The translations under genes and the position numbers were made by a program. The notes under the pieces are model-generated. The model made no database searches and was not told the DNA's origin. It saw nothing but the letters and a program-made list of their open reading frames with translations. Shown piece after piece: positions 7,254 through 40,606 of a stretch of DNA of 64,000 nt. The DNA is taken from contig CALREW010000001.1 of assembly GCA_943356415.1 (NCBI GenBank), positions 16,528-80,527 of the forward strand, read 5' to 3'. This stretch comes from Candidatus Nomurabacteria bacterium. GTDB lineage: Bacteria; Patescibacteriota; Minisyncoccia; Phycocordibacterales; SBAW01. Position 1 is the first letter of the stretch. Each line of letters starts with the position of its first letter.

Positions 7254-7281
7254 GTGTGGGAGTGAAAGTTGCTAAGGCAGA

Positions 7282-7854
7282 TTATTTGCCAGACTTTTCA
7301 ATTATTTTGCGTATTAGTTTCTCATCCGCAACTGCTTTGGGTGCCTTGCGACCAAATCTTTTAAGTTGAATAGCAGCTACTTGTTGCTGAGCCTCAAGAG
7401 TTGCCGTGCGTAGCGAGACTCCTTCCAGGACAGCGTTAGTTTGTTCTGGAAAATATAAGGATGAATCAATCTCGGCACCTGGTTCTAAGTGCCGGATAGC
7501 TTGCTCAAAAAGCTTTGAATTTCCCAAGTCTAATTTGGTGCCTGTTGTTTTGTGTACATATTTCTCAACCCCCTCTTCGGTTTTAAGATGTGCGAAATCA
7601 AGATTCGAGATGATCTCTTGAGCACGGACGTGGTCCTCCTCTTCGACAATAATGTCTATATCGTCGTGATCGCGACTCAATTTACCGTACAAAGCATCGA
7701 GACCATAACCACCGAGCACTGAATAGTGCACGGTGGCAGTTTCCAGGGCGTGAGAGAGGTTCTTCAAAAGATCAAAACGTTCGCGTTGTTGAAGTGACGG
7801 TCTGTACTCAGACTCGATCTTCCGGGTCCGGGAAGGTTTTTCTTTGGGCGGCAT
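7282..7854 (-). CDS. nucleotidyltransferase of the ANT(2'')/Lnu-like (PF10706-type) family
   Basis: HYSVLGGYGLDALYGKLSRDHDDIDIIV matches the W..GGWG.D...G...R.H.DIDI motif of lincosamide/aminoglycoside nucleotidyltransferases. Confidence 0.5.
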   Translation of the reverse strand: MPPKEKPSRTRKIESEYRPSLQQRERFDLLKNLSHALETATVHYSVLGGYGLDALYGKLSRDHDDIDIIVEEEDHVRAQEIISNLDFAHLKTEEGVEKYVHKTTGTKLDLGNSKLFEQAIRHLEPGAEIDSSLYFPEQTNAVLEGVSLRTATLEAQQQVAAIQLKRFGRKAPKAVADEKLIRKIIEKSGK

Positions 7855-7902
7855 AAGAAAACTTTAGCACACGACCATATTGAGACTTGATGCTAAGGAA
7901 AT

Positions 7903-8153
7903 TACCTTTTTGTGCTCTAATTCTAACATTTGCTCGAACCTACTTCACACGCGCGGAGCGCGTGGTGGCTTGAAACTGCCCCGTACGCTCCGATTAAGTG
8001 GTGATGCGAACCAATGCGCCTCAACCGCGCTCGCAGACTCGCGCGGGCAAACCCAAAAATTTCCTTGCATTTTCTTTGCACGGCTCCTCCCCCCACCCCT
8101 CCGCCTGCAAGGCGAAAAATGAGGAAAGGAAATTTTTGGTTTGCTTCGCCGCT
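7903..8153. repeat. IR-A (about 250 bp), inverted copy of 9914-10165
   Basis: The reverse complement of 9914-10165 matches 7903-8153 essentially base for base (both strands produce the shared ORF-track peptide MVMRTNAPQPRSQTRAGKPKNFLAFSLHGSSPHPSACKAKNEERKFLVCFAA). Confidence 0.9.
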
Positions 8154-8425
8154 TCGGAACTCCGAAAAGAGTACTTTTAGTTTAGCACTTATGATTGCTC
8201 TTTTCTCCATTCCTCGCGGCGACCCGAGGTGCAATACAATGCGGTCTGCGCTAATGCGCAGTCAGATTTAATATGTGCTTGCCCACCCTCCCACCGCGCA
8301 CATAATCCCCACCGTTTTAGGAAAAATTATAAAACGGTTGGGATTGCTCCATAAAATAAGAGTTTGTTTGGATTGACTTCTGAAAAGTGGTACACTATAA
8401 GCTATAAACATTAAACAATACTTTT

Positions 8426-8905
8426 ATGGGAATGGAAGGATTTAAACCTGCATCGCAGGAAAAAGAGCCGACAATTGGGACACCGGAAAACGTTGAGGGA
8501 CCAAATCAACTGGATAATATTTTGAATGTAATTCGACAAAAAATTGAGCTTGCAAAAGTGCAATTAGAGAAAGCAAATTCGCAAGAATGGATAATAGGAG
8601 AATCAGGTTTCGCAGTTGAACCAAAAGAAGCGGCTCAAGCTAAAGCAAAATTGGACTATTTAGAAAAAGCCCACGAATTATTTTTTAAACCTGTCTTAGA
8701 GTCTCCAAAATCTCAACTTTCGTTAGAAGTAGTGCTTGAGGGTATTGAAAATTATACGAAACATCTTAACGATGAGTATGCTAGACAGTTTGGTAAACTT
8801 GATCCTAACGATGTTGAAGAGACAAAACAAAATAGGGCCAAAAAAATGTGGGGGGAGATAAAACTTAGGGACAAAATTGTGTCTGAGTTTTCGTCCATTA
8901 CTTAA
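8426..8905 (+). CDS. hypothetical protein (AT-rich cargo)
   Basis: 159 aa ORF with coiled-coil-like Lys/Glu-rich composition; no recognisable motif. Confidence 0.45.
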   Translation: MGMEGFKPASQEKEPTIGTPENVEGPNQLDNILNVIRQKIELAKVQLEKANSQEWIIGESGFAVEPKEAAQAKAKLDYLEKAHELFFKPVLESPKSQLSLEVVLEGIENYTKHLNDEYARQFGKLDPNDVEETKQNRAKKMWGEIKLRDKIVSEFSSIT

Positions 8906-8934
8906 TAAAGAACTTAATAAAGACTTTTTGATTC

Positions 8935-9654
8935 CTAGATTCTTAATTTTGTTTTCCAGTTTGTAATCGCAGTGCGTAAGGATTCTTCATAGACAGATTT
9001 AAATGCTGTTTCGAGCGTTGTGTTTTCATCGAGCTTTCTATATGCCTCTATTATTTTATTTTCTCCATAAACTTTTCTTAAGTACTCAATAAAACTGAAA
9101 AGCACCAGATACCCAAGCTGGTCGGCAAACGGCTCTTTGTTTGTATCTCCTCCCATTGTTTTTATATCCCCTATTGTTTGAATAGCGAGAGGGTCGGGAA
9201 TGTCTTGAATATTTTCCTTTTCTAATTTTTCAATAAGTCTGTCTGTTGCGCCATCAAACCCCGCAGTTCCTTCTTCTAGGAAAAAAGAATTTCTATAGGC
9301 AGAGAAATTTCCAACAAGATGAGCAACGACAATATGGGCTGTTTCGTGTTTGATGATTTTTTCTGCATCATTTGGTAGATCCCGAAATACATCGACATTG
9401 CAATATATTTTGTCGTCTGGTTGATCTCGAAGAAGAAAACAATATTTCCATGATTGCGGACCAGAGGTTGCCCCTTCTCTAAAAGCATCATCGCTCATTA
9501 TTGATACCCCGATTCTTATTGGCGAGGAAACACCCCACTCTGCTTCCAAAAGTACACCAACCTTGTTAAAAGATAGCTTTACTTGCTTCTCTTGCTCAAC
9601 TAAAACGCTCCCAGAGATTTCAAATATAAAATTTATATATTGTGGCTTTTTCAT
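8935..9654 (-). CDS. ImmA/IrrE-family (Peptidase M78/DUF955-like) zinc metallopeptidase
   Basis: HExxH motif HETAHIVVAH; lies next to and upstream of an XRE helix-turn-helix gene, as in ImmR/ImmA modules. Confidence 0.55.
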   Translation of the reverse strand: MKKPQYINFIFEISGSVLVEQEKQVKLSFNKVGVLLEAEWGVSSPIRIGVSIMSDDAFREGATSGPQSWKYCFLLRDQPDDKIYCNVDVFRDLPNDAEKIIKHETAHIVVAHLVGNFSAYRNSFFLEEGTAGFDGATDRLIEKLEKENIQDIPDPLAIQTIGDIKTMGGDTNKEPFADQLGYLVLFSFIEYLRKVYGENKIIEAYRKLDENTTLETAFKSVYEESLRTAITNWKTKLRI

Positions 9655-9663
9655 CTTTAAAAT

Positions 9664-9873
9664 TTATTTTAACAACTTATCGCTCGAAACGCCGAGCGCT
9701 TGAGCCAAGCGTTCCAGCTGTTGAATGGTAATATTTTTCTTGCCGTTCTCTATCGCACTCATATAGCCCCTATCCATATCAAGCGCACGGCAAATGTCGC
9801 CTTGCGACATTTCTTTTCGAGTCCGTATTTTCTTGATATTTTGACCAAGTTTTTCACGAATCAACATATCCAC
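9664..9873 (-). CDS. XRE-family helix-turn-helix transcriptional regulator
   Basis: MSQGDICRALDMDRGYMSAIENGKKNITIQQLERLAQALGV is a canonical HTH_XRE (Cro/C1) sequence. Confidence 0.8.
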   Translation of the reverse strand: MDMLIREKLGQNIKKIRTRKEMSQGDICRALDMDRGYMSAIENGKKNITIQQLERLAQALGVSSDKLLK

Positions 9874-9913
9874 AGTTTACGAGATATTGCATTTCTAGCC
9901 AATCTTGAACTAT

Positions 9914-10292
9914 AATTCAACTTAGCGGCGAAGCAAACCAAAAATTTCCTTTCCTCATTTTTCGCCTTGCAGGCGGAGGGGTGGGGGGAGGAGCCGTGCA
10001 AAGAAAATGCAAGGAAATTTTTGGGTTTGCCCGCGCGAGTCTGCGAGCGCGGTTGAGGCGCATTGGTTCGCATCACCACTTAATCGGAGCGTACGGGGCA
10101 GTTTCAAGCCACCACGCGCTCCGCGCGTGTGAAGTAGGTTCGAGCAAATGTTAGAATTAGAGCACTAGAGAGAACAAGTCGCGGATTTAGAATTTGGAGC
10201 GATTTTGCGGAAGCCAAAATCGCGCTATCAATTTCTTTTCCGCCTACGGCGGAAGCCGTGAAATCCCATAATTCCCCCCAGCGTATGGAAAC
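9914..10292. repeat. IR-A' (9914-10165) contiguous with IR-B (10162-10292)
   Basis: The first part is the inverted copy of 7903-8153; the second part is the inverted copy of 11698-11827; the two overlap by 4 nt (gcac). Confidence 0.9.
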
Positions 10293-11844
10293 AACTCAAA
10301 CCAAAACTAAATGCGTTCTCTATGCAAGAAAAAGCACAGAGGAAGATGATAAACAAGTTATGTCCATTGAGGCACAGTTTTTTGAATTGGAAGAATACGC
10401 GCATAGAGAACGCATTGAAATCGTGAAAGTATTTACGGAAGCGAAAAGCGCAAAAAAGCCCGGGCGAGACGAGTTTGCGAAAATGATTGAATATATTGAA
10501 AGAAGCAGTGAGCCAATCGGTATCATTTGTTGGCACCCCGACCGTCTCGCCCGCAATAGCGTTGATGGCGGTAAAATAATTTATCTTGTAGACACTGGCG
10601 CTATTGCTTCTTTGCGCTTTCCGCAGTTTTGGTTTGAGCCAACTCCGCAAGGGAAATTCATGTTGCAAGTGGCGTTCGGACAAAGCAAGTATTTTTCTGA
10701 CAATCTTGTGGAAAATGTGAAGCGTGGAATCCGCCAGAAATTGCGAAAGGGTGAATGGCTGACACTTGCGCCCCTTGGCTATGTGAACAATTACAAAACG
10801 AAAAATATTGAACCCGACAAGGTAGAATCTCGCGTTATCAAGTTAGCATTTCAAGAATACGCCAAGGGAACGCACACGCTTGTTTCTCTTTCGCAATTTC
10901 TGGCGGATCACGGGATTGTGCAGAAAAAAGGAACGCCACTTGCCAAAGTTTCCGTCGTGAAAATGTTGTCCAACAGAGCATATATAGGATTTATTAAACA
11001 TCGCGGAGAATGGCACGACGGAAACTTTGAATCCATTGTTTCTCCGACACTGTTTGAAGCAGTGCAAAAAGTGTTCGCGGAACGGAAGAAACCCCGAAAG
11101 CAAAAATCGTTTCTTCCGTTCGCATTTACCGGATTTGCAAAGTGCGGAGAGTGTGGCTGTGCAATTACGGCACAATATTCCACCAACCGATATGGAGTAA
11201 AATATTGCTACTATCGTTGCACCAAGAAAAATGGAAAGTGCGCACAGCCGTATTTGCAGGAAAAATCACTCTCCGCACAATTGCAAACACTGCTTCAATC
11301 AGTGTCGCTTCCTCTCTCGGAAATTGAAGAAATGGAAAAGCAGATTGATATGTGGGAGAAAGAATCAATTTCCGAGAGAGGAAGTGTTGCCCAAAATCTA
11401 AAAACGAAACTTTCAGACACGAAGGAGAAACTGGACAAACTTATTACGCTCTACCTCGACGGGGATATTGAACGAGAAATATATTTGGCGCGTAAAGATT
11501 TACTCCTTCGTGAAAAAGCGAAAGTTTCGGAAAGTTTAGATGATTTTGGGCAACACAAGAAACAATGGCTCCAACCCTTGCGGAGTTTCATTTTGTCCTT
11601 GAAAGAAGCCACTGTTTTGCAGGAAACGGAAAACCACCTCGCGTGGAAGCAGTTTTTCCAAAAAATCGGGTCTAACCCCACTTTCAAGGACAAAACGGTT
11701 TCCATACGCTGGGGGGAATTATGGGATTTCACGGCTTCCGCCGTAGGCGGAAAAGAAATTGATAGCGCGATTTTGGCTTCCGCAAAATCGCTCCAAATTC
11801 TAAATCCGCGACTTGTTCTCTCTAGTGCCGGGGAGAGGACTTGA
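10285..11844 (+). CDS. large serine recombinase (resolvase/invertase catalytic domain, recombinase domain and zinc ribbon)
   Basis: CVLYARKSTEEDDKQ...ICWHPDRLARN catalytic domain with the Ser in ARKST; C-terminal CGECGC...CYYRCTKKNGKC zinc ribbon; ATG at 10285 (METTQ) sits exactly at the end of IR-B; the ORF track's alternative start is 10258; the C-terminal roughly 45 codons run through IR-B' and 20 nt into tRNA-Leu, so the true stop may be earlier. Confidence 0.8.
   Translation: METTQTKTKCVLYARKSTEEDDKQVMSIEAQFFELEEYAHRERIEIVKVFTEAKSAKKPGRDEFAKMIEYIERSSEPIGIICWHPDRLARNSVDGGKIIYLVDTGAIASLRFPQFWFEPTPQGKFMLQVAFGQSKYFSDNLVENVKRGIRQKLRKGEWLTLAPLGYVNNYKTKNIEPDKVESRVIKLAFQEYAKGTHTLVSLSQFLADHGIVQKKGTPLAKVSVVKMLSNRAYIGFIKHRGEWHDGNFESIVSPTLFEAVQKVFAERKKPRKQKSFLPFAFTGFAKCGECGCAITAQYSTNRYGVKYCYYRCTKKNGKCAQPYLQEKSLSAQLQTLLQSVSLPLSEIEEMEKQIDMWEKESISERGSVAQNLKTKLSDTKEKLDKLITLYLDGDIEREIYLARKDLLLREKAKVSESLDDFGQHKKQWLQPLRSFILSLKEATVLQETENHLAWKQFFQKIGSNPTFKDKTVSIRWGELWDFTASAVGGKEIDSAILASAKSLQILNPRLVLSSAGERT
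11698..11827. repeat. IR-B' (about 130 bp), inverted copy of 10162-10292, ending inside the tRNA-Leu(TAG) 3' end
   Basis: The reverse complement of 10162-10292 matches 11698-11827. Confidence 0.9.
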
Positions 11845-11906
11845 ACCTCCACATCTTGCGATACCTGCTCCTAAGGCAGGCGTGTATACCAATTTCACCA
11901 CCCCGG
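11825..11906 (-). tRNA. tRNA-Leu(TAG), type II
   Basis: Cloverleaf readable: acceptor GCCGGGG/CCCCGGC, anticodon stem CCTGC/GCAGG with loop CTTAGGA, long variable arm, T-loop TTCAAGT; no encoded CCA. Confidence 0.85.
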
Positions 11907-12011
11907 CGTAAGGGAACTATAAACCAGAAAGGGCAGGCTCAAAAGGAGGATTCGGTCCTTACAGGATGAGTACAGGGCGCACAGGTGGTCAGGGGTTTGA
12001 GTTTGGAAGGA

Positions 12012-12120
12012 TTCGGTCAAGCGCTCACTCGTCGCCGTCGCTCCTCGCTCCGCCTGACCACGATTCCGCGACCCGCCCTGCTGAGCGGGTGCCCGCGAAA
12101 TCCTTCGAATCCTTCTGGGC
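12012..12120. repeat. GC-rich structured tRNA-linked repeat E1 (candidate ncRNA or att-like element)
   Basis: Shares the ggYcaagMgctc...cgccgtcgc...gacccNNN-ctRctRa-NNNgggtgcccgcg... framework with E2 and E3; ends in an inverted copy of the tRNA-Lys 3' end. Confidence 0.6.
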
Positions 12121-12168
12121 GTAATACAAAAGTCGTCGGATACATGTATCCGACTCGTTTTGTATTTG

Positions 12169-12241
12169 TGCGCCCAGAAGGATTCGAACCTTCGACCGTT
12201 CGCTTAAGAGGCGACTGCTCTACCAACTGAGCTATGGGCGC
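12169..12241 (-). tRNA. tRNA-Lys(CTT)
   Basis: Acceptor GCGCCCA/TGGGCGC, D-loop TAGCTCAGTTGGTAGAGC, anticodon loop CTCTTAA, T-loop TTCGAAT. Confidence 0.85.
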
Positions 12242-12324
12242 ATGTATCTCACAGAACGCGGATTCGTCTCAGCCGAAGCCGGATGAACAAAAAAGATACT
12301 AACACAATACGCAGGATTCTAAAG

Positions 12325-12451
12325 TGTGCCGAGGGGACTCGGCCAAGAGCTCGTACTATCGCCGTCGCGCCAGTACTCCTCTCGGCCCTGCTCGCACGAC
12401 CCATTCTGCTAAATGGGTGCCCGCGCTCGCTTTCTCGTCCTACCCCGACAG
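12325..12451. repeat. GC-rich structured tRNA-linked repeat E2
   Basis: About 85% identical to 26143-26264 over about 120 nt; two hairpins (GTACT..AGTAC and ACCCATT..AATGGGT). Confidence 0.7.
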
Positions 12452-12496
12452 AAATTGTTAATCGCCCGGAACAGATTCCGGACTCAAACAATTTTG

Positions 12497-12579
12497 TGCC
12501 GGGGGTGGGACTCGAACCCACACGACCTTTCGATCTGGGGATTTTAAGTCCCCTATGTCTACCATTCCATCACCCCGGC
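12497..12579 (-). tRNA. tRNA-Leu(TAA), type II
   Basis: Acceptor GCCGGGG/CCCCGGC, anticodon stem GGGGA/TCCCC with loop CTTAAAA, long variable arm, T-loop TTCGAGT. Confidence 0.85.
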
Positions 12580-12763
12580 GGGTTGGGGGAATCGGTCACA
12601 GATAATCGCTCGTCGTCACTCGCGATTTCCGCGACCCCGGCTCGCGGTTTCGTCTGCTGACGAAACATCGCTGCGCCTTTCGATTCCCCACGTGCCGTGC
12701 GTAGGCACGGCACTCCCAGGACTCATTGAAACGTGCACTGTCGTGCACGAAAAGCCACTGAGG

Positions 12764-12835
12764 AGTCCTGGGGGGGAATCGAACCCCCGCGTGTCGGTTT
12801 TGCAGACCGAAGCGTTACCACTTCGCCACCAGGAC
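12764..12835 (-). tRNA. tRNA-Cys(GCA)
   Basis: Acceptor GTCCTGG/CCAGGAC, anticodon stem TCGGT/ACCGA with loop CTGCAAA, T-loop TTCGATT. Confidence 0.8.
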
Positions 12836-12862
12836 AATATGAGCCGCACGTACTTTAGCATA

Positions 12863-13207
12863 TCAGGCTCCTTTGGCCTGCTTTTCTGCTTCGTGAGAAA
12901 GTTCGTCCATGCGCTGGCGATTCTTTTCACCTTCATCAATGCGGAACTCAGCACGGGGAAGTACGCGGAAGCGTGAACGCTCTTTGAAAAATGCGCGTAA
13001 TTCTGGCGAGCGGCGGTTTGCAAAATCAACCGCTGAGCCCTCCTTCTCGCGGGGCAACACCGTGATGTAGACGATAGCTTTATGTTCTCGTTCAACGATA
13101 TCGACGCGAGTCACGGTTATCAGTGACTGTCCGCCATCTTCGCGAGCGAGGAATTCTGCGGCAAGCTCTCGTACCGCCTCTGCCAATTTTTGTTTGTGGA
13201 AAGCCAT
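12863..13207 (-). CDS. rbfA: ribosome-binding factor A
   Basis: RbfA-like sequence (LITVTRVDIV...AIVYITVL...ELR); sits downstream of infB as in the nusA-infB-rbfA operon. Confidence 0.8.
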   Translation of the reverse strand: MAFHKQKLAEAVRELAAEFLAREDGGQSLITVTRVDIVEREHKAIVYITVLPREKEGSAVDFANRRSPELRAFFKERSRFRVLPRAEFRIDEGEKNRQRMDELSHEAEKQAKGA

Positions 13208-13216
13208 TGCCGAGAC

Positions 13217-14725
13217 TTACTTCTCTATGATCGTGAAGCACTCGATACGGTCGCCCGCGGCAGGTTCTCCTTCAGTTTCGACGAGTGCTCCAAATTCCGA
13301 ACCTTTTTCGACACTCTTTGTTGCCACTTTACCGCTCTGGAGACTTTTTATGCGACCGCGGCCGAGCTCAAGGTCGCGGCGCATAAGGCGAAACTGGGCG
13401 CCATCTTGGAGCACTCCTTCTTCCACTCGGCCGCCGAGCACTACTTTGTGCTTAGTCGAGCTAAAAACTTTTAGCACCTTTGCTGCGCCAGTTACTTCCT
13501 CCACCATCTCGCGCGGCGTACGCTCTTTTGCTTTTGCTTCGAGCCACTCTGCAAGTTTGTAAATGATGTCGAAGTGCATGACTTCAACGCCTTGGCGTTC
13601 CGCCATCTCGCGTGCACGTGCATCTGGCTTGCTGTTAAAACCCAAAATGATGCCCGCAGTAGAACTGCCCGCAACGAGTTTTACGTCCGCTTCAGTCACT
13701 CCACCTACTGACGCCCCAACAACACGTATTTCAATTTTATCCTGAGGAATTTTCTCTATCTCGTGACGGATAGCGTCTATGGTTCCGGCAACATCCGCTT
13801 TTATGACGACAGGCAGTACGGCGCGCACCACTTCTGTTTCAGATGTAGGTGCAGCCTTTGGAGGCGCCATACGCGCAGCACGAGCCTCCGCTGCGATAGC
13901 CTCTGCCTCCTTTTTTGAATCAACCGTCTTAAATGCTCCTCCAATCTGTGGCAAGACTGAAAATCCAACGATGCGTACTGGAGAGCCAGCCGAGGCTTCT
14001 TTAATAGCCGTCCCTTTAAAATTTTCCATAATGCGCACCGGCGCAAACGATTCGCCTGCAACAACGTACATACCCGAAGCGAGTTTTCCGTCGCGCAATA
14101 TGAGCGTGGCGGCGATACCTTTGCGTGTATCAACATTTGCTTCGATCACGCTGCCTGAAGCGGGTGCGCTGGCGTCGTAGCTCAGTTCGGCAAGTTCCGC
14201 GGCCAACAGCACGAGGTCGAGCAATTCAGAAATACCATCTCCGCGTTTTGCGGAAATGGGAACAAATGGGACGTCGCCACCCATGCCTTCGAGGTACACT
14301 TCGTTTTCAATAAGGGAACTTTTCGTGCGCTCAAGGTTTGCGCCTGGCTTGTCTATTTTATTGATAGCCACAATGAAGGGGCGCTTTTCTTGGCGGATGA
14401 GTTTAACCGCCTCGATGGTCTGCTGCTTCACACCGTCTTCCGCTGACACCACAAGAATCGCGACGTCGGCTACTTCAAGCCCACGTGCACGCATCTTCTC
14501 AAACGCAGCGTGTCCTGGAGTGTCGAGGAAGGTGATGGCCTCAGTCGCTCCTTCTTTCGTCTGATGCGTTATTTCGTATGCAGAGAGATGTTGTGTGATT
14601 CCTCCCGCTTCTCCTTCGACCACATTTGTTTTGCGGATGTAGTCAAGCAGCGTGGATTTGCCGTGGTCGATATGACCCACGACGGCAACGATAGGGGGGC
14701 GCTTTGTGCGGGAGGCTGAGTTCAT
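13217..14725 (-). CDS. infB: translation initiation factor IF-2 (short form lacking the long N-terminal region)
   Basis: G-domain VVGHIDHGKSTLLDYIRKTNV, DTPGHAAF, NKIDK; the C-terminal beta-barrels are present. Confidence 0.9.
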   Translation of the reverse strand: MNSASRTKRPPIVAVVGHIDHGKSTLLDYIRKTNVVEGEAGGITQHLSAYEITHQTKEGATEAITFLDTPGHAAFEKMRARGLEVADVAILVVSAEDGVKQQTIEAVKLIRQEKRPFIVAINKIDKPGANLERTKSSLIENEVYLEGMGGDVPFVPISAKRGDGISELLDLVLLAAELAELSYDASAPASGSVIEANVDTRKGIAATLILRDGKLASGMYVVAGESFAPVRIMENFKGTAIKEASAGSPVRIVGFSVLPQIGGAFKTVDSKKEAEAIAAEARAARMAPPKAAPTSETEVVRAVLPVVIKADVAGTIDAIRHEIEKIPQDKIEIRVVGASVGGVTEADVKLVAGSSTAGIILGFNSKPDARAREMAERQGVEVMHFDIIYKLAEWLEAKAKERTPREMVEEVTGAAKVLKVFSSTKHKVVLGGRVEEGVLQDGAQFRLMRRDLELGRGRIKSLQSGKVATKSVEKGSEFGALVETEGEPAAGDRIECFTIIEK

Positions 14726-20226: not shown

Positions 20227-20310
20227 GCGTCGGTGGCGGAGTGGTCAATCGCATCTGACTGTAAATCAGACGCCCTAGCGGCTACGCAGGTTCGAATCCT
20301 GCCCGGCGCA
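20227..20310 (+). tRNA. tRNA-Tyr(GTA), type II
   Basis: Acceptor GCGTCGG/CCGGCGC, anticodon stem TCTGA/TCAGA with loop CTGTAAA, long variable arm, T-loop TTCGAAT. Confidence 0.8.
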
Positions 20311-20313
20311 CAA

Positions 20314-20352
20314 AGACAGAAACACCTGCCCTTCGGCAGGTGTTTCTGTTCC
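20314..20352 (+). terminator. rho-independent terminator after tRNA-Tyr
   Basis: agacagaaacacctgcc-cttc-ggcaggtgtttctgt hairpin followed by a T-rich tail. Confidence 0.7.
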
Positions 20353-21421: not shown

Positions 21422-21572
21422 TTCCTCCAAACTTCTCAAAAACGCGCTCCCACCGGGGCGCGTTTTGCGGTAAAGGTCCACGTGGTGAACCTTTGTTCCA
21501 ACTTCGCTCGGCAGAAATGTATGCCCGCACACATTTCCTGTTCCTCGCTCGTTGGAGTAAGCTTCTCTCTAC

Positions 21573-21643
21573 GGGCGATTAGTTAAATGGTATAACAGCG
21601 GTCTCCAAAACCGCTATTGGGGGTTCGATTCCCTCATCGCCCG
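21573..21643 (+). tRNA. tRNA-Trp(CCA)
   Basis: Acceptor GGGCGAT/ATCGCCC, anticodon stem GCGGT/ACCGC with loop CTCCAAA, T-loop TTCGATT. Confidence 0.85.
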
Positions 21644-21649
21644 CAAATA

Positions 21650-21682
21650 CAAAAAAGACCCTGCGACTAGGGTCTTTTTTGT
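21650..21682 (+). terminator. rho-independent terminator after tRNA-Trp
   Basis: aaaaaagaccc-tgcgacta-gggtctttttt. Confidence 0.75.
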
Positions 21683-21800
21683 ATTCGGCGTTGAGCAAAC
21701 CGACTGCTCGGTTTGCGCAGCGGAATCGAAGGCCGGAACCATGTCGCCCTCAGGCGACAGGTGAGGCGGGGTCGCGACCGAGCCGAGCGACGGCGAGGTG

Positions 21801-21930
21801 AGAGTTGTGACCGATTCCCTCATCGCCCACTATGGCTAAGAGGAGAAATGTCGCGGCGGCGCATTTCGAGCTCTTAGCCGATTCCCAAGTTGGCGCGAAC
21901 CCAGAGTTGTGACCGATTCCCGCCATCCAC
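21801..21930 (+). repeat. direct repeats of the tRNA-Trp 3' end (agagttgtgaccgattccc...), at 21801-21828 and 21903-21930, with a third partial copy at 21876
   Basis: tRNA 3' end cgattccctcatcgccc recurs as gaccgattccctcatcgccc and gaccgattcccgccatccac. Confidence 0.75.
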
Positions 21931-26142: not shown

Positions 26143-26264
26143 GGTGCCGGGAGAATCGCTTGGCCAAGAGCTCGTCCTGTCGCCGTCGCACCAGGACTCC
26201 TCTCGGCCCTGCCCGCGCGACCCATTCTACTGAATGGGTGCCCGCGCTTACTTTCAAGTCCTCT
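26143..26264. repeat. GC-rich structured tRNA-linked repeat E3 (between tRNA-Leu(CAA) and pyrF)
   Basis: About 85% identical to 12325-12451; hairpins GTCCTG..CAGGAC and ACCCATT..AATGGGT; ends with an inverted copy of the tRNA-Leu(CAA) 3' end. Confidence 0.7.
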
Positions 26265-26320
26265 CCCCAGCAACAATGCAAAACGCCCAGAGGTATACTC
26301 TGCTCGTTAAGCGTCTTGTG

Positions 26321-26403
26321 TGCCGGGAGAGAGACTTGAACTCTCACGCTGTCGCCAGCGGTGGGTTTTGAATCCACTGCGTCTACCATTCCGCCATCCC
26401 GGC
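26321..26403 (-). tRNA. tRNA-Leu(CAA), type II
   Basis: Acceptor GCCGGGA/TCCCGGC, anticodon loop TTCAAAA (A-C mismatch at the stem end), long variable arm, T-arm GAGAG-TTCAAGT-CTCTC. Confidence 0.75.
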
Positions 26404-40408: not shown

Positions 40409-40479
40409 TGGGGGATCGTCTAATGGTAGGACAGAGGCCTTTGAAGCCTTTAATCGGGGTTCGAATCCCTGTCCCCCAA
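40409..40479 (+). tRNA. tRNA-Gln(TTG)
   Basis: U1-A72 acceptor TGGGGGA/TCCCCCA, anticodon stem GAGGC/GCCTT with loop CTTTGAA, T-loop TTCGAAT. Confidence 0.8.
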
Positions 40480-40606
40480 CTCGAGATGTACGAAGTTCAG
40501 TGAGAGGTGGGGGACAGGGTAGGGAGGGGTCGGGAACCGTGTGATAGTTCCCGTGAAGGAAGGATTGGGAAAACCGTGGGTTTCCCAGCCCCGTGCACCC
40601 CCAACT
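40480..40606 (+). other. structured GC-rich trailer after tRNA-Gln: inverted copy of the tRNA 3' end, two tandem GGGAAMCCGTG hairpins, partial direct repeat of the tRNA 3' end
   Basis: tgggggacaggg (40508-40519) is the reverse complement of the tRNA 3' ccctgtccccca; hairpins gggaacCGTGTGATAgttccc and gggaaAACCGTGGGTttccc; acccccaac at 40596-40604. Confidence 0.6.

Follow-up and report, generated by a model that had tools for sequence, protein, structure and literature searches.

Structured modules that copy the end of the adjacent tRNA follow tRNA and tmRNA genes in Paceibacteria-type bacteria and may be exchangeable insertion elements

Why should a transfer RNA (tRNA) gene be followed by an inverted copy of its own 3' end? 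The question is raised by a 64,000-nt stretch of contig CALREW010000001.1 from an ultra-small Candidatus Nomurabacteria bacterium (the window), a bacterial chromosome segment that codes for a short IF-2, RbfA, ClpB, TopA, RelA/SpoT, UvrB, SerRS, DprA, DnaX and ParB and that contains eight tRNA genes on which ARAGORN and Rfam agree. A preliminary description of this DNA had stated that its tRNA genes are mostly trailed by such a copy and that none of them encodes CCA. The latter is borne out by the sequence of all eight, and the former is true for six (Lys, Cys, Trp, Gln, Leu(TAA) and Leu(CAA)), while a scan for inverted matches in the trailers of tRNA-Tyr and tRNA-Leu(TAG) gave scores at background and no inverted copy of the 3' end. 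Where present, the inverted copy makes up the left arm of a larger, self-contained module, found immediately 3' of tRNA and transfer-messenger RNA (tmRNA) genes, always on the tRNA strand, in Paceibacteria-type bacteria of the Candidate Phyla Radiation (CPR), a clade assignment that rests on the names attached to IF-2 homologues.

Read 5' to 3', a unit consists of an optional hairpin or short spacer, a segment X' that is the reverse complement of tRNA positions 56 to ~73 (segment X of the tRNA), a conserved head of ~85 nt with two hairpins, and a segment X2 that is a direct copy of tRNA positions 56-74 and pairs with X'. The module as a whole measures ~105 nt and the complete unit 130-200 nt, all of it non-coding. 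On the tRNA strand the predicted fold is a three-way junction whose base replicates the acceptor/T-stem helix of the tRNA itself. P1 is formed by X' and X2, and the innermost 7 bp of this closing stem come from the T-loop and are shared by all copies; the P2 hairpin contains a GGA/GA internal loop, and the P3 hairpin ends in a tip of the sequence GA-GC-GACG-GC-GA. X' is interrupted in about half of the units by a hairpin of ~25 nt (P1a; loop usually CTGC) exactly at the boundary between acceptor and T-stem, the place of the tRNA body. The window units have fold energies of -60 to -77 kcal/mol on the tRNA-sense strand (z -4.2 to -5.8), and the antisense strand folds 9-22 kcal/mol worse.

The direct copy of the tRNA end ~90-110 nt further on, the structured module between the two copies and the optional nature of the hairpin in relatives all go beyond the preliminary description, which had suggested a device for termination or 3' processing. 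A simple terminator-plus-repeat device does not account for the units, as a terminator-like hairpin with a T-tail stands between tRNA and X' in just 29 of 66 related units (44%), being absent from the other 37, and as the inverted copy is part of a covarying module of ~105 nt. Many units have a C-GNA-G mini-hairpin instead of the terminator-like hairpin, and this motif is very stable in single-stranded DNA. The trailers in metagenome loci L124-L243 often begin with such a mini-hairpin (GAACGNAGTGA).

Within the window, the unit of tRNA-Lys(CTT) (12168-12241, minus strand, with X, positions 56-73, at 12171-12188) shows the layout. Downstream on the same strand lie an A/T-flanked hairpin (12123-12167), which is terminator-like in both directions and a candidate terminator, as the whole unit is not; X' (12104-12121), whose 18 nt are the exact reverse complement of T-loop, T-stem and acceptor 3' strand; the head (12009-12115), comprising the inner stem of P1, P2 and P3 with apical GCGACGGCGA and scoring 55.1 bits (E=1e-13) against R1, a covariance model made from an alignment of 50 copies; and X2 (12006-12015; CGAATCCTTC), which repeats the T-loop and the 3' strand of the T-stem in direct orientation and in truncated form. 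The inverted copy, with 18 of 18 matches to 12171-12188, had been placed at 12101-12120 and within a palindrome of ~48 bp; both copy and palindrome exist, but the palindrome as a whole spans ~12104-12188, with ggatacatgtatcc at its centre. A relic of a further unit end (AAGGACCGAATCCTCC) is found at 11945-11960 on the minus strand, between this unit and tRNA-Leu(TAG).

The other five units follow the same order. Behind tRNA-Leu(TAA) (12496-12579, minus strand), the unit at 12326-12495 comprises a hairpin (12451-12495), X' (12434-12450), a head (12335-12443; 56.8 bits against R1) and X2 (12326-12341). The unit of tRNA-Cys(GCA) (12762-12835, minus strand) extends over 12580-12749, with a hairpin at 12732-12749, the acceptor part of X' at 12715-12724, P1a at 12690-12714, the T part of X' at 12679-12689, a head at 12588-12690 (106.3 bits) and an X2 (12580-12594) shortened by the next tRNA. 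On the plus strand, tRNA-Trp(CCA) (21573-21644) precedes a unit at 21645-21829 that is made up of a terminator-like hairpin (21645-21685), acceptor and T parts of X' (21687-21695 and 21722-21730) on the two sides of P1a (21696-21715), a head (21719-21818; 78.1 bits) and a full-length direct copy as X2 (21812-21829; CGATTCCCTCATCGCCCA), behind which relics of an older unit occupy 21834-21921 (P3 alone at 21834-21885, a unit end at 21906-21921). The unit of tRNA-Leu(CAA) (26320-26403, minus strand) lies at 26144-26315 with a hairpin at 26283-26315, X' at 26253-26272, a head at 26158-26264 (38.5 bits) and X2 at 26144-26157. Behind tRNA-Gln(TTG) (40409-40480, plus strand), the unit at 40508-40605 (X' at 40508-40519, hairpins at 40532-40552 and 40567-40586, X2 at 40596-40605) has no match to R1, resembles L143:600-800 and belongs to a second head family that has the same arm layout and is also found behind tRNA-Pro in L143. 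The second-family trailers (window 40481-40605; L143:560-830) have a two-hairpin head with the motif GGAAGGATTSGGAAAAC.GTGGGTTT. The two tRNA genes that serve as controls have no unit: that for Tyr is followed by a terminator hairpin only (20316-20349; gene and hairpin together 20227-20349, plus strand), and the 3' end of that for Leu(TAG) (11825-11907, minus strand) adjoins a strain-specific insertion of 4.57 kb.

Some coordinates of the preliminary description were thus displaced by 1-10 nt. The copies behind tRNA-Leu(TAA) and tRNA-Leu(CAA) are present and imperfect, the former with an indel, but had been placed at 12433-12449 and 26243-26262, the latter being off by 10 nt. That of tRNA-Gln was located correctly and matches at 12 of 12 positions. 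For tRNA-Cys the reported segment is present but incomplete, its second half lying beyond the 25-nt hairpin, and the copy of tRNA-Trp, which had been called weak, is split by a hairpin, only its T-loop half having been caught. When ungapped inverted-match scores were compared with those of 1000 random 170-nt windows, they were 18 for Lys (p=0.004), 12 for Gln (0.002), 11 for Cys (0.003), 9 for Trp (0.02), 8 for Leu(CAA) (0.04), 7 for Leu(TAA) (0.12) and 6 for both Tyr and Leu(TAG) (~0.5).

The units belong to a large family. A strict motif derived from four window copies occurs four times in the window and in none of 100 shuffles of it, and at least 120 matches were found in metagenome contigs, many of them from 0.1-µm groundwater fractions. 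R1 recovers exactly five full heads and the one P3-only relic in the window, each full head just downstream of a tRNA gene on its strand, and 126 further heads in ~576 kb of metagenome loci drawn from the strict-motif matches listed, where partial copies also occur; it has no match in 747 kb of unrelated genomes that share a loose form of the motif (GGGTCGYG..GCGACGGCGA). The 120 matches of this loose form in high-GC genomes are due to chance, none of them fitting the strict motif or R1. Among the 101 heads with enough upstream sequence to be evaluated, 75 lie at most 150 nt downstream of a tRNA or tmRNA gene on the same strand, where ~2% would be expected from tRNA density, ten more stand behind another unit in tandem arrays, and none is antisense to a tRNA. 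The hosts include at least 29 tRNA anticodon species as well as tmRNA.

Selection for the fold is suggested by every old copy keeping its structure, and the pairs covary. In the MAFFT alignment of 50 copies, compensatory changes are seen in 15 of the 26 pairs of the consensus fold. In the alignment of 126 copies, 95.8% of cells are paired, 24 of the 26 pairs have changes on both sides, and the covariation score is 0.570 (0.163 in shuffles and at most 0.086 for slid partners); this alignment was fitted to R1 and hence leans towards structure, and the independent MAFFT alignment agrees with it. Only tRNAs exceed the gathering threshold of Rfam 15 in the window, and at E values up to 10 nothing credible overlaps the heads over 11700-12900, the best sub-threshold match there being mascRNA on the tRNAs themselves (21 bits, threshold 42.5 bits). 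We found no description of such units in the literature; the group I introns of Patescibacteria tRNA genes are anticodon-loop introns and are unrelated to the trailer units (PMC13011429).

Both arms carry the signature of the neighbouring tRNA. X2 is specific to its own tRNA in ~70% of units, with a median score of 11 for cognate and 4 for non-cognate tRNAs, and degenerate in ~40%. The exact repeat between X and X2 starts at C56 of the T-loop, has a modal length of 18-19 nt, ends where the tRNA ends and reaches at least 17 nt in 26 of 66 units. X2 retains the discriminator base in 34 of 39 units, and 45 of 90 units can form an acceptor-like helix with no fewer than 6 of its 7 pairs. Among genes with a unit behind them, 7 of 90 encode CCA, as do 20 of 85 genes without a unit in the same loci and 12 of 39 X2 copies. 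When gene and X2 of one unit are compared, CCA is present in X2 alone in ten cases and in the gene alone in none. Because CCA is retained more often in X2 than in the working gene end, the simplest reading of this asymmetry is that X2 would be the displaced native 3' end and that the working end would have come with the insert. In the tRNAs of the clade (L124-L243), the discriminator is followed by CAA in 58 of 175 genes and by CCA in 27, so that CAA and not CCA is usual there.

Turnover of the units is seen when the window is set against a second strain (contigs L244-L248), which is 97-100% identical to it outside the units and which allows the Cys, Leu(TAA), Lys and Trp units to be compared. 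In the tRNA cluster, tRNAs and plain spacers are identical in L244. The Cys unit (window 12588-12690, L244:12036-12138) shows two differences only, which are the two sides of a single pair of the apical stem (U-A to C-G) within ~700 nt of otherwise identical surroundings. The Leu(TAA) unit is ~24% diverged, with several compensatory stem pairs among the changes, exactly from the right arm of the hairpin to X2, and its flanks are ~100% identical. Rearranged partial copies replace the Lys trailer in L244, and the Trp unit is of a different subtype in the two strains, the P3 relic of the window (21834-21885) being the P3 of the Trp unit of L244. A more distant relative, L251 (68% IF-2 identity), keeps the tRNA order and an orthologous Cys unit, has no unit at Lys or at Leu(TAA), where CCA is encoded, and has one at tRNA-Tyr, where the window has none. 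Behind tRNA-Asp (L166) and tRNA-Arg (L168) of one sample stand heads with 93% identity and different arms, the similarity being bounded by TCGAAAAG and GTGACCGA, and head similarity in general does not track tRNA identity. Heads are thus transferred between tRNA contexts, and trailers are replaced or rearranged between strains and patchy among relatives, so that the recombination hotspot mentioned as an alternative in the preliminary description comes closest to what we observe.

Some variants carry genes, all of them oriented as the tRNA. In L223, tRNA-Ser is followed by 3.2 kb that include an HNH homing endonuclease and then by X', head and X2; in L201 and L240, 1.2 kb separates tRNA-Gln from the unit; and L128 has two identical units with an IGPS fragment between them. 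Altered tRNA-Ser genes are found at two further places. At L229:5100-5560 the 3' part of a tRNA-Ser is replaced (CTGAAAACCG together with a matching inverted copy) ahead of a unit, and a second, intact tRNA-Ser follows; at L148:1050-1280 a tRNA-Ser is disrupted, with only its 3' fragment left ahead of the unit.

Patchiness, subtype switching, arrays, relics, cargo and the CCA asymmetry lead us to favor an exchangeable DNA cassette. We speculate, with a probability of roughly 45%, that the unit is a cassette-like element, non-autonomous and inserted at tRNA 3' ends, and that its folded strand imitates the target. Exchange would take place by recombination within the segment of tRNA genes that reaches from the T-loop to the 3' end, and a putative enzyme would be offered a single strand (DNA or read-through RNA) folded so as to imitate the duplex target, as is the case for integron attC and CTX-phage attP(+). 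Insertion would supply a replacement tRNA 3' end and often also a terminator, while the native end would be displaced and survive as X2. The match of the arms to each tRNA might arise by fold-back or palindrome-templated correction together with target duplication.

The likeness to attC and attP(+) extends to an integrated layout of target copy, cargo, inverted arm, loop and direct arm, to a strand-specific structure that is conserved while the sequence varies, to arrays and to cargo oriented as the target gene. An attC site has R''/L'' and L'/R' boxes (RYYYAAC ... GTTRRRY), extrahelical bases and an adjacent IntI integron. The stems of the units, in contrast, are derived from tRNA (GGAnTCG ... 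CGAnTCC plus T-stem and acceptor strand) and have no GTTRRRY core. In place of attI or dif they have as their target the stretch from the T-loop to the 3' end of any tRNA or tmRNA, to which the arms of each unit are individually fitted, and their counterpart of the "loop" is a conserved head with two hairpins. Neither IntI nor Xer is linked to them, with no integrase among the scanned window and cargo proteins, and most units carry no gene. The kinship appears to be a functional analogy in which only the integrated layout and the strand-specific fold match. Miniature inverted-repeat transposable elements (MITEs), repetitive extragenic palindromic (REP) sequences and bacterial interspersed mosaic elements (BIMEs) are likewise small, non-coding, multi-copy, intergenic, strain-variable and often transcribed and have terminal inverted repeats. 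The terminal repeats of our units, however, are target-derived and copy-specific, the outer 12 nt of the arms varying by tRNA; the duplication comprises ~19 nt of target; identity within a genome is only ~50%; and association with tRNA 3' ends and orientation are strict.

Several observations weigh against a mobile cassette. Copies that share a locus do not resemble each other more than copies from separate loci do (mean identity 0.50 against 0.54), so that there is no sign of the recent bursts that characterize active MITEs; the preservation of structure in every old copy, mentioned above, suggests selection at each locus. Very close strains gave no clean pair of an empty and a filled site; among the scanned window and cargo proteins (which include housekeeping genes, the HNH endonuclease and an unrelated serine recombinase only) there is no recombinase, HUH enzyme or reverse transcriptase linked to the units; and the strict motif has no match in the viral contigs of IMG/VR. 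We know of no recombination scheme into which a single head family that acquires arms for at least 29 tRNA species would fit. Other features point to RNA. At the positions where X and X2 differ, X' pairs with X only in 99 cases and with X2 only in 13, a count that is somewhat biased by how X' was located, and this preference for the real tRNA end points to a possible interaction between X' and the tRNA. In three stem pairs that are free of register choice, G-U (29) outnumbers A-C (13), and a conserved G-U pair and tandem G-A motifs in the fold likewise fit RNA. The 37 of 66 units without a terminator before X' are, moreover, probably co-transcribed with the tRNA.

It is for these reasons, namely the pairing between tRNA and X', the probable co-transcription, the conserved G-U pair and the G-A motifs, that a role as RNA is kept alive. 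The idea of the preliminary description that the trailer could pair with the 3' half of the tRNA is supported in silico: in minimum free energy (MFE) folds, all six window units show 23-33 tRNA-trailer pairs, with X' paired to the tRNA 3' half at a predicted gain of 3-14 kcal/mol, and the Tyr control shows 2 pairs and no such pairing. Extended accordingly to the unit as we describe it, the idea would be that a cis-acting pre-tRNA trailer is co-transcribed with the tRNA, that X' competes with the tRNA 5' half for the 3' half and X2 sequesters X', and that this two-state fold times or checks 3' maturation, termination or decay. Placement immediately downstream on the same strand, an X' that follows the real tRNA end rather than X2, the lack of an intervening terminator in most units, the strong covariation and RNA-like motifs, the fold kept by old and diverged copies and the in-place compensatory changes between strains would all be explained. 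Such a trailer RNA, the main rival of the cassette, nevertheless seems unlikely to us: orthologous tRNAs of L251 do without a unit, which also weakens a role in termination or 3' processing, and so do two of the eight tRNAs of the window; the subtype at one and the same tRNA (Trp) differs between strains; tandem arrays, relics and gene-carrying versions exist; 44% of units stand behind a terminator-like hairpin that should halt transcription before X'; and X2 is often degenerate. The unit might instead be a stand-alone, tRNA-like non-coding RNA, in which the X'/X2 minihelix would be recognized by RNase P and RNase Z (and the CCA enzyme), releasing a small RNA that imitates the top half of the neighboring tRNA and acts as a primer or as a decoy for enzymes, toxins or integrases that recognize tRNA ends. 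Plant mitochondrial t-elements and mascRNA work as processed tRNA-like elements, and together with bacterial YrlA they share with the units the mimicry of acceptor and T-arm and a location next to or within transcripts handled by tRNA-processing enzymes; the 7-bp acceptor-like helix in half of the units (45/90), P1a exactly where the tRNA body would be, the discriminator base and encoded CCA of X2 and the units behind tmRNA could be taken in the same sense. The units differ in copying the neighboring tRNA exactly and in matching no Rfam model, a helix and the head take the place of the T-loop that RNase P and the CCA enzyme use, and most window copies (Lys, Cys and Leu) have an intact head but no longer the acceptor part of X2, so that we consider this reading, in which expression and cleavage are predicted, improbable.

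Direct repeats of a tRNA 3' end are also the classic footprint of integrase-mediated islands and prophages, of which the units could be passive scars (attR/attL remnants) left at tRNA 3' ends by later deletion. Islands of this kind target both tRNA and tmRNA, duplicate the gene 3' end as a direct repeat that stops at the gene end, and supply a working end while the native one is displaced, as our units seem to do; islands lie between tRNA and unit in L223 and L201, and an element with a serine recombinase sits at tRNA-Leu(TAG) of the window. Scars, however, would not share a conserved, covarying fold of 105 nt across at least 29 tRNA species and many genomes and would carry no inverted copy, and the units are non-coding and only 130-200 nt long, have one module for all these tRNAs and come with neither an integrase in the cargo examples nor integrase remnants among the scanned window and cargo proteins, all of which makes scars very improbable. 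Neighboring pseudo-tRNA fragments, proposed earlier as a way in which the pattern could dissolve, do not explain it either: X2 is indeed a fragment of a tRNA 3' end, yet it always stands behind a conserved head and is paired with X', and neither ARAGORN nor Rfam finds a 5' tRNA body at the X2 copies. Chance matches from the GGTTCGAATCC T-arm sequence shared by all tRNAs would account for the T-loop-derived innermost 7 bp of the stem that all copies have in common, but they are refuted by arms that continue through the tRNA-specific T-stem and acceptor strand, by the cognate scores (median 11 against 4), by the absence of the strict motif from window shuffles and by match probabilities of 0.002-0.04 in the window. 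A T-loop intron, in which X2 would be spliced on to become the tRNA end, was rejected, as the first copy always gives an intact tRNA and X2 is degenerate in ~40% of units. Class C group II introns also insert after terminator-like hairpins, and retroviral primer-binding sites, too, are internal stretches of ~18 nt that can pair with the 3' end of a tRNA; the units, however, have no intron domain V/VI, no reverse transcriptase nearby, and no TGG ahead of X' as a complement to CCA. Group II introns, hammerhead-like ribozymes and K-turns were likewise rejected, since the required consensus, bulge geometry or domains are missing and there is no Rfam match.

Some further features of the window deserve mention. 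The insertion of 4.57 kb at tRNA-Leu(TAG) (7254-11824) codes for a large serine recombinase (10258-11844; its 3' end reaches into the tRNA gene), an aminoglycoside-resistance-type nucleotidyltransferase (7282-7854) and an MA-type peptidase (8935-9654); in L244, which lacks it, a NUDIX gene follows 4 nt after the tRNA. Just upstream of tRNA-Trp, an 87-nt insertion (21470-21556) that contains ttcctcgctcgtt is absent from L244, with flanks otherwise identical, and as a 13-nt stretch of it matches L148 exactly, it may be another small repeat. IF-2 (13217-14725) has 502 aa and is without the long N-terminal region; the homologues retrieved have a comparable length (~500-530 aa), and those that are named belong to Candidatus Paceibacterota or Parcubacteria.

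Returning to the cassette, we offer a wider and more doubtful proposal, namely that the units are an unrecognized class of element that builds its closing stem from the end of the adjacent tRNA or tmRNA gene, possibly through self-retargeting insertion in which fold-back copying gives X' and duplication gives X2, or else that they are dedicated antisense partner RNAs, one for each tRNA, that serve as 3'-end guides or decoys and are common in CPR bacteria. Short-read contigs of close relatives (L249, L250 and L255) stop at or just before tRNA loci, consistent with repeated trailer units breaking assemblies, and contigs of relatives with 80-83% IF-2 identity stop at the tRNA cluster itself; in practice, the units appear to break metagenome assemblies at tRNA loci.

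CPR genomes are very small, and yet five to six of the eight tRNA genes studied here each come with 130-200 nt of conserved structure. The units are, with their strong covariation, candidates for a new RNA family. If they are mobile, they would represent a new way of choosing and copying a target, in which one module serves every tRNA and tmRNA by means of a target-mimicking stem, and would bear on the origin of tRNA genes as the universal landing sites of mobile DNA. If they are functional RNAs, a private antisense or mimic partner for each tRNA would add a new layer to tRNA biology.

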